Of a DNA stretch of 21,243 nt, positions 21,094-21,243 are shown piece by piece. The notes beneath the pieces are model-generated. The model was not told where the DNA came from and searched no databases. It was given only the letters and a program-made list of their open reading frames with translations. The stretch is from a virus (taxonomy: Duplodnaviria; Heunggongvirae; Uroviricota; Caudoviricetes): positions 1-21,243 of the IMG/VR virus record IMGVR_UViG_2698536657_000004. The stretch is one strand, 5' to 3'. The translations under genes were made by a program, and so were the position numbers. Position 1 is the stretch's first letter. Each line of letters begins with the position of its first letter.

Positions 21094-21243
21094 ATGTACC
21101 AGATGGAAAAAATCACAACAGGTGTGTCCTACACCACGTCAGCGGTGGGAACGGGGTACTGGTTCCTGCAGTTGCTGGACAGGGTATCCCCGTCTCAGTG
21201 GGCGGCAATAGGCGTACTGGGGAGTCTGCTGTTTGGTCTGCTG
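21094..21243 (+). CDS. S: Holin S (phage 21 / Stx-phage type), N-terminal 50 codons only; truncated by the window end
   Basis: Translation [50 protein letters not shown] matches remembered S21-type holins; two Met codons (M1, M4) as in dual-start holins; SD ggag 7 nt upstream. Confidence 0.75.

Follow-up and report, generated by a model that had tools for sequence, protein, structure and literature searches.

The DNA analysed here, hereafter the window, is a stretch of 21,243 nucleotides (nt) covering positions 1 to 21,243 of the IMG/VR record IMGVR_UViG_2698536657_000004 (Caudoviricetes). It is a lambdoid prophage, and at the 3′ end of the window its late operon runs into the holin gene S, which opens with two in-frame ATG codons (hereafter ATG1 and ATG4, after their positions in the reading frame; Table 1). 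From ATG1 the reading frame continues for 50 codons to the end of the window without a stop, and the encoded residues are 100% identical to residues 1-50 of S of phage 933W (AF125520) and of the S protein of Escherichia coli SCU-171. By comparison with these proteins, the truncation is an effect of the window edge and is not natural, because the nearest relatives sharing the same 50 residues retain an intact gene of 71 codons, encoding 71 amino acids (aa) with the C-terminal end KIKEDRRKAARGE. Hydropathy indicates that codons 1-50 span helix 1 and most of helix 2.

The 50-residue fragment matched the Pfam family PF04971 ('Bacteriophage P21 holin S') with 71.7 bits, and a full-length relative matched it with 112.8 bits (cut-off 26); NCBIfam contained no model matching S. 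Full-length S of the 933W type aligns with the phage 21 protein (S21) over all 71 residues without gaps, at 77% identity, and shares with it G40, G43, S44 and G48 of helix 2, a protein for which GxxxG motifs have been mentioned (PMC13056207). The mean hydropathy of helix 1 is 0.71 and its Gly, Ala, Ser and Thr content 50%, the values for S21 being 0.52 and 55%, and helix 2 is strongly hydrophobic in both proteins; the two features by which the family can be recognised, low hydrophobicity of helix 1 and small-residue (Gly/Ser) packing of helix 2, were thus both found. On the strength of the Pfam match and the identity to S21, the window S is a class II holin (pinholin) of the phage 21 family and not a lambda-type S. 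The S genes of Shiga toxin (Stx) phages have been classed in the same way, as pinholins of the P21 holin S family that are paired with predicted signal-anchor-release (SAR) endolysins (PMC10462455, PMC8136144). The window stops inside S, before the endolysin gene R; in the relatives, R follows downstream and encodes a Phage_lysozyme protein whose N-terminus has a hydrophobic stretch rich in Gly and Ala, predicted in Stx phages to be a SAR endolysin (PMC8136144). S is an ordinary genome feature: the 933W genome record already lists a gene whose product is identical to the fragment, and the dual-start motif of the family is known from experiments in phage 21.

The start region reads ATG TAC CAG ATG GAA AAA, encoding MYQMEK..., in agreement with the sequence-only reading, which had pointed out the two Met codons among the first four codons of this lysis gene. 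An in-frame TAG at 21076-21078 makes ATG1 the earliest possible start. Given a Met usage of about 2.8%, we estimate that a second Met would occur by chance in codons 2-4 of one gene with a frequency of roughly 8%; in a single gene the two-Met motif proves little, and it is its recurrence across the aligned family that is not chance. We scanned one genome per species with the family alignment and obtained 80 loci from many Enterobacterales genera, 79 of which were usable. Two in-frame ATGs, 2-4 codons apart, were present in 78 of them, the remaining locus being without ATG1. The motifs were MYRM (31 loci), MKSM (20), MRM (7), MLRM (6), MHRM (4), MIRYM (4), MYQM (3), MKM (2) and MDQM (1), besides the ATG1-less locus (1). 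Among the 41 distinct coding sequences of the M-x-x-M form, Met1 and Met4 were invariant, while codon 2 was occupied by five amino acids and codon 3 by three. In distant clades (MRM, MIRYM, MKM) the second Met stands at other spacings, and this shifting is more readily explained by a start codon than by a structural residue. The window S thus keeps the ancestral two-start layout of the family.

In phage 21, the two starts give rise to the antiholin S21-71 and the holin S21-68, a pair described in the literature (PMC9636201, PMC13056207, PMC4749879); the phage 21 GenBank record annotates both products, S21-71 as the antiholin of 71 aa from Met1 and S21-68 as the holin of 68 aa from Met4. Our statements about S21 rest on the secondary descriptions in the cited papers and on this annotation. 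The earlier expectation that the family uses a dual start is thereby borne out, and S21 resembles S of the 933W type in family, length, gapless identity and Met1-x-x-Met4 arrangement. The analogy drawn at the time was with the lambdoid holins of the classical kind. Lambda S (S107/S105) does share with the window gene two in-frame starts in a holin gene, but it belongs to an unrelated family, is a class I holin with three membrane helices that forms large holes, and has a Met-Lys-Met motif whose Lys is essential to the charge model (PMC6116005). For the S allele of the window, public annotation is split, since the 933W and RefSeq records start S at Met1 and the curated record of the Stx phage P27 starts it at Met4. 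The searchable literature contained no study of start use in this allele.

Table 1. Coordinates of S, its initiation signals and the features upstream, in window positions
Feature	Position	Strand	Remarks
Q antiterminator	14265-14672		
Three tRNAs	16324-16573		
TerB-domain open reading frame	17266-17769	+	
NanS-p-like esterase gene	18417-20372		
DUF1378	20524-20718		Pfam
DUF826	20744-21016		Pfam; followed by S
Terminator-like hairpin (GGCCA..TGGCC) then TTTTT	21026..21057	+	Fold of 21010-21160; between DUF826 and S
SD1-occluding hairpin	21070..21086	+	CTTCCGT (21070-76), loop AGT, GCGGGAG (21080-86); predicted -8.5 kcal/mol
Shine-Dalgarno sequence SD1 (GGGAG)	21082..21086	+	7 nt before ATG1, 16 nt before ATG4; anti-SD duplex -7.4 kcal/mol
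SD2-like sequence (GGGGT)	21089..21093	+	9 nt before ATG4, abuts ATG1; -6.1 to -6.4 kcal/mol
Pinholin gene S, first 50 codons	21094..21243	+	Translation, Pfam match; gene cut by window end
ATG1, start of 71-aa form	21094..21096	+	Equivalent of S21-71 antiholin start; invariant in 41 M-x-x-M coding sequences
Codons 2-3, TAC CAG (Tyr Gln), long-form extension	21097..21102	+	No Lys/Arg
ATG4, start of 68-aa form	21103..21105	+	Equivalent of S21-68 pinholin start; family-invariant

Thermodynamic predictions place a ribosome binding signal before each of the two starts, a Shine-Dalgarno (SD) sequence, SD1, for ATG1 and the SD2-like element, SD2, for ATG4. SD1 is among the weakest in the family, in which most such sequences have duplex energies of -9 to -14 kcal/mol. 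Its counterpart in phage 21, GGAGG, has the same spacing of 7 and 16 nt to its two ATGs but a duplex energy of -9.5 kcal/mol, against -7.4 kcal/mol in the window. The second site differs in the opposite direction: at the position of SD2, most relatives have about -2 kcal/mol and phage 21 has +0.4 kcal/mol, compared with -6.1 kcal/mol in the window. The SD2-like element is unpaired, lying outside the hairpin described below, and the P27 record annotates it as the ribosome binding site of S.

RNA structure in the leader of lambda S has been described as influencing initiation, and the sequence upstream of the window S had been proposed to fold over the first start. What we found is a hairpin over SD1, in phage 21 as in the window; in the latter it buries SD1 and stops 7 nt short of ATG1. 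Folds of 76 nt and 151 nt that reach the starts were no better than those of shuffled sequences (z of -1.2 and -0.8, respectively). An outer stem, GTTGTGA (21062-68) with TCACAAC (21112-18), would enclose both starts, and we rejected it as a conserved feature because many relatives have the leader variant GTTGTCA, whose G-to-C change disrupts the stem without compensation. The proposal therefore survives in a shifted form, for the ribosome binding site of ATG1 and not for ATG1 itself.

An SD-covering hairpin was the minimum-energy fold in nearly all of the 63 distinct leaders of the family, and it is built from different sequences (CACC.CGC/GCG.A.GGTG, CACTTCC/GGAGGTG, CTCC.CGC/GCG.A.GGAG and CTTCCG/CGGGAG). 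RNAalifold found no consensus structure in the 63-sequence MAFFT alignment, because the register of the hairpin differs between clades, and in its place we used the folds of the individual sequences and a count of the named structure. In the unfitted MAFFT alignment, 85.5% of the cells of the majority hairpin were paired, compared with 73% after shuffling (none of 500 shuffles reached the observed value) and 35-57% when the structure was slid along the alignment, and compensatory changes were present in three of the seven pairs. Among 82 close relatives, the stem was constant and the loop sequence variable, GATTG or GATAA being found in most Stx phages in place of the AGT of the window. When the 5′ arm of each sequence was shuffled, the SD pairing was 0.82 in the observed and 0.60 in the shuffled sequences, with only 29 of the 63 sequences at or below 5 in 100 shuffles; much of the SD pairing is explained by the C-rich composition of the leader alone. 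An Rfam scan of 20400-21243 returned nothing meaningful.

The residues between the two starts set the window allele apart from most of its family. The antiholin character of S21-71 has been attributed to a basic residue that its N-terminal extension adds (PMC13056207, PMC4749879, PMC9636201), for which Lys2 together with the deformylated N-terminus is the counterpart in lambda S107 (PMC6116005), and a Lys or Arg between the starts has been used as the criterion for a dual-start motif (PMC9671378). Such a residue was present in 74 of the 79 related loci, and in every architecture except the 933W type (MKSM, MYRM, MLRM, MHRM, MRM, MKM and MIRYM) the long form has a charge of +1 relative to the short form. 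Whereas Lys2-Ser3 of phage 21 likewise makes the long form more positive by one, Tyr2-Gln3 of the window leaves the charge unchanged, the net side-chain charge of MYQMEK being equal to that of MEK. A holin/antiholin pair cannot simply be assumed for the window S because this charge residue is absent; of the lambdoid holin/antiholin gene that had been envisaged, the two-start layout of the family stands, and the assignment to the lambda type does not.

We then considered 118 viral contigs from IMG/VR that were sampled solely on the sequence beginning at ATG4. The three codons preceding ATG4 encoded MYQ in 86 contigs, IHQ in 15, MDQ in nine and MNQ in eight, and none of them contained Lys or Arg. 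Codon 2 of S of the 933W type is thus polymorphic among Tyr (86), Asp (9) and Asn (8) (loci L164 onward; e.g. L168 at 787 and L194 at 4174), and the Asn2 alleles mostly have a strengthened SD1 (GGGAGG) as well. Non-basic extensions were also encountered in other backgrounds (MFQM and MYQMDK). The cluster counts from protein searches are unusable as allele frequencies, as the clusters are drawn at 90% identity and have arbitrary representatives. To judge from these sequences, the N-terminal extension looks relaxed in the 933W-type clade.

The 15 IHQ contigs carry an allele without ATG1 (IHQM; WP_000411802.1; e.g. at L087 1171-1215, in E. coli O55:H7 RM12579 and in E. albertii), in which ATA occupies the position of ATG1. 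Among complete E. coli genomes, 691 of 5426 contained the same allele. It has 92% identity to the 933W-type S query, shares the mature start MEKITTGV..., and has GGAG 9 nt before ATG4, at the site of SD2 in the window; it differs in its single start, its length of 68 aa and its leader, which is unrelated and hairpin-free. In one genome, RefSeq annotates the gene as 68 aa from Met4, followed by lysozyme and lysis protein genes (L285 1601-1807). Because the allele occurs in such an annotated cassette of S, R and lysis protein genes, Met4 would suffice as a start in the 933W-type clade, and by its sequence the allele is a natural single-start gene for a 68-aa pinholin.

The account that we prefer, with our confidence about evenly balanced, is that the window S likely yields two products, that the 71-aa form is at most a weak antiholin, and that the dual start in the 933W-type clade is degenerate and does not operate as the classic switch. 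One product would be made from each ATG. The 68-aa form from ATG4 would act as the lethal pinholin. On the model of its homologue S21-68, helix 1, which is weakly hydrophobic and rich in Gly, Ala, Ser and Thr, would exit the membrane, and helix 2 would then assemble into small depolarising holes that activate the membrane-tethered endolysin. The 71-aa form from ATG1 would be a minor product, its amount limited by the hairpin and the weak SD1, and, as the Tyr-Gln extension adds no positive charge, its predicted antiholin activity is weak at most. In the searchable literature we did not find either the missing charge determinant of this clade or the signs of a shift toward the second start.

Several points weigh against this account. 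ATG1 was kept in all 103 of the sampled alleles with this leader, which suggests that the long form still matters. SD1 is the stronger of the two SD sequences and has ideal spacing to ATG1, and on the modelled energies the long form could be the major product. By analogy with lambda S107, for which a deformylated N-terminal amine has been described (PMC6116005), such an amine, or the three-residue polar/aromatic extension itself, could retard the exit of helix 1 without Lys. In addition, the window taken by itself gives the hairpin weak support, as 10 of 100 shuffles did at least as well as the native sequence; S is truncated at the window end, and the prophage of the nearest relative has frameshifted spanin genes; and the searchable literature holds no experiment on this allele.

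The rival that survives best is a classic dual start, in which translation begins at both ATGs and the 71-aa product acts as a true antiholin, delaying triggering as S21-71 does. Favouring it are the identity to S21 with the same M-x-x-M layout and SD1 spacing, the conservation of both Met codons across the family and of ATG1 in the alleles with this leader, and the published statement that one of the two extra charges of lambda S107 comes from the deformylated Met1, for which no Lys is needed (PMC6116005). We nevertheless consider it rather unlikely: the Lys or Arg that is the stated determinant of antiholin function (PMC13056207, PMC4749879, PMC9636201; used as a criterion in PMC9671378) is absent, Asp2 alleles would reverse the charge, and single-start alleles are common.

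Initiation at ATG4 only, with ATG1 and codons 2-3 being effectively part of the leader and a relic of an ancestral dual start, appears less probable still. It would account for an exposed and well-spaced SD2 beside a weak, hairpin-bound SD1, for the choice of Met4 with SD2 in the P27 record, for the wide occurrence of the ATG1-less allele in annotated lysis cassettes and for the free variation of codon 2. However, SD1 stands at the textbook distance of 7 nt from ATG1, none of the sampled alleles with this leader lacks ATG1, and the same geometry yields both products in phage 21. Initiation at ATG1 only, with Met4 retained merely as an internal residue for structure, would agree with ATG1 being the first start after the in-frame stop, with its stronger and ideally spaced SD and with the 71-aa annotation in most public records, but we regard it as the least probable, since Met4 is invariant where its neighbours vary, the second Met moves in distant clades, alleles beginning at Met4 exist in annotated lysis cassettes, and Met4 starts the active holin in S21 (PMC9636201).

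The surroundings of S are those of a lambdoid prophage, with genes for an integrase, a helix-turn-helix (HTH) repressor, DnaC-like and DnaB-like replication proteins and a DNA methylase, besides the features listed in Table 1. The region 20400-21243 (844 nt) has its best DNA match, at 98.2%, in the chromosome of the commensal E. coli SCU-171. Phage 933W and related Stx phages encode the identical 50 aa and have the same stem, SD1, SD2 and both ATGs, preceded by the same NanS-p, DUF1378 and DUF826 genes, but they match this region at only about 88% DNA identity. In phage 21, S stands directly after tRNA genes, without NanS-p, DUF1378 and DUF826.

No open reading frame (ORF) of stx size was found in the window. 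Between the tRNAs and the esterase gene, the slot that stx fills in Stx phages holds instead a 167-aa ORF that encodes a TerB (tellurite-resistance-type) domain. In SCU-171 the tRNAs and the esterase gene are only about 490 nt apart, and the TerB ORF is therefore an extra cargo gene. The tRNA at 16324-16399 was called tRNA-Met (anticodon CAT) by ARAGORN, while its equivalent in SCU-171 is tRNA-Ile in RefSeq; it is probably a CAT tRNA of the kind modified with lysidine. Two tRNA-Arg genes come after it, as they do in Stx phages.

Annotations conflict over the stretch immediately upstream of S. The 933W record has a single ORF of 148 aa (L0106; L001 2571-3017), corresponding to a GTG-initiated ORF at 20570-21016 of the window, whereas RefSeq has two small genes within 20524-21016, and the Pfam matches to DUF1378 and DUF826 back the two-gene reading. 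We considered whether the small membrane protein DUF1378, with DUF826, might be a separate antiholin offsetting the lost charge, and dropped this idea because its presence upstream of the S alleles is inconsistent: DUF1378 preceded only about half of the distinct MYQM contexts, and none of the MDQM or IHQM contexts. The terminator-like hairpin between DUF826 and S sits inside the Q-antiterminated late operon; relatives have other hairpin-plus-T-run sequences at its position. A scan for promoters and terminators gave no plus-strand site near S and did not call this hairpin.

Downstream of S, SCU-171 (L002 4916-7641) has a DUF1327 pseudogene, a lysozyme gene about 1 kb further on and frameshifted spanin ('lysis protein') genes, and its lysis cassette may be decaying. 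Genes for S that are 76-100% identical to the E. coli phage S query were also found on short contigs (L084, L091, L098, L101, L112, L122, L131 and L143), labelled as Xanthomonas pisi, Candidatus Nanosynbacter, Bacillota, Veillonella parvula, Segatella copri, Geobacteraceae and Alkalicoccobacillus; these contigs are most likely contamination or mis-binned DNA of enterobacterial prophages.

The holin sets the time of lysis and, in the Stx phages that have the same S allele, has an effect on burst size and on when toxin is released. We tentatively raise the possibility, doubtful as it is, that the pinholins of the 933W-type clade, to which most Stx phages belong, gave up charge-based intragenic control by an antiholin. 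The sequences point this way because the basic residue has been lost, SD strength has shifted to a new SD for Met4, residue 2 drifts among Tyr, Asp and Asn, and single-start alleles are common. If this is true, lysis timing, and in Stx phages also toxin release, would be set without a classic antiholin. If, on the other hand, the 71-aa form is inhibitory even though uncharged, the charge model for antiholins of dual-start genes would have to be revised.
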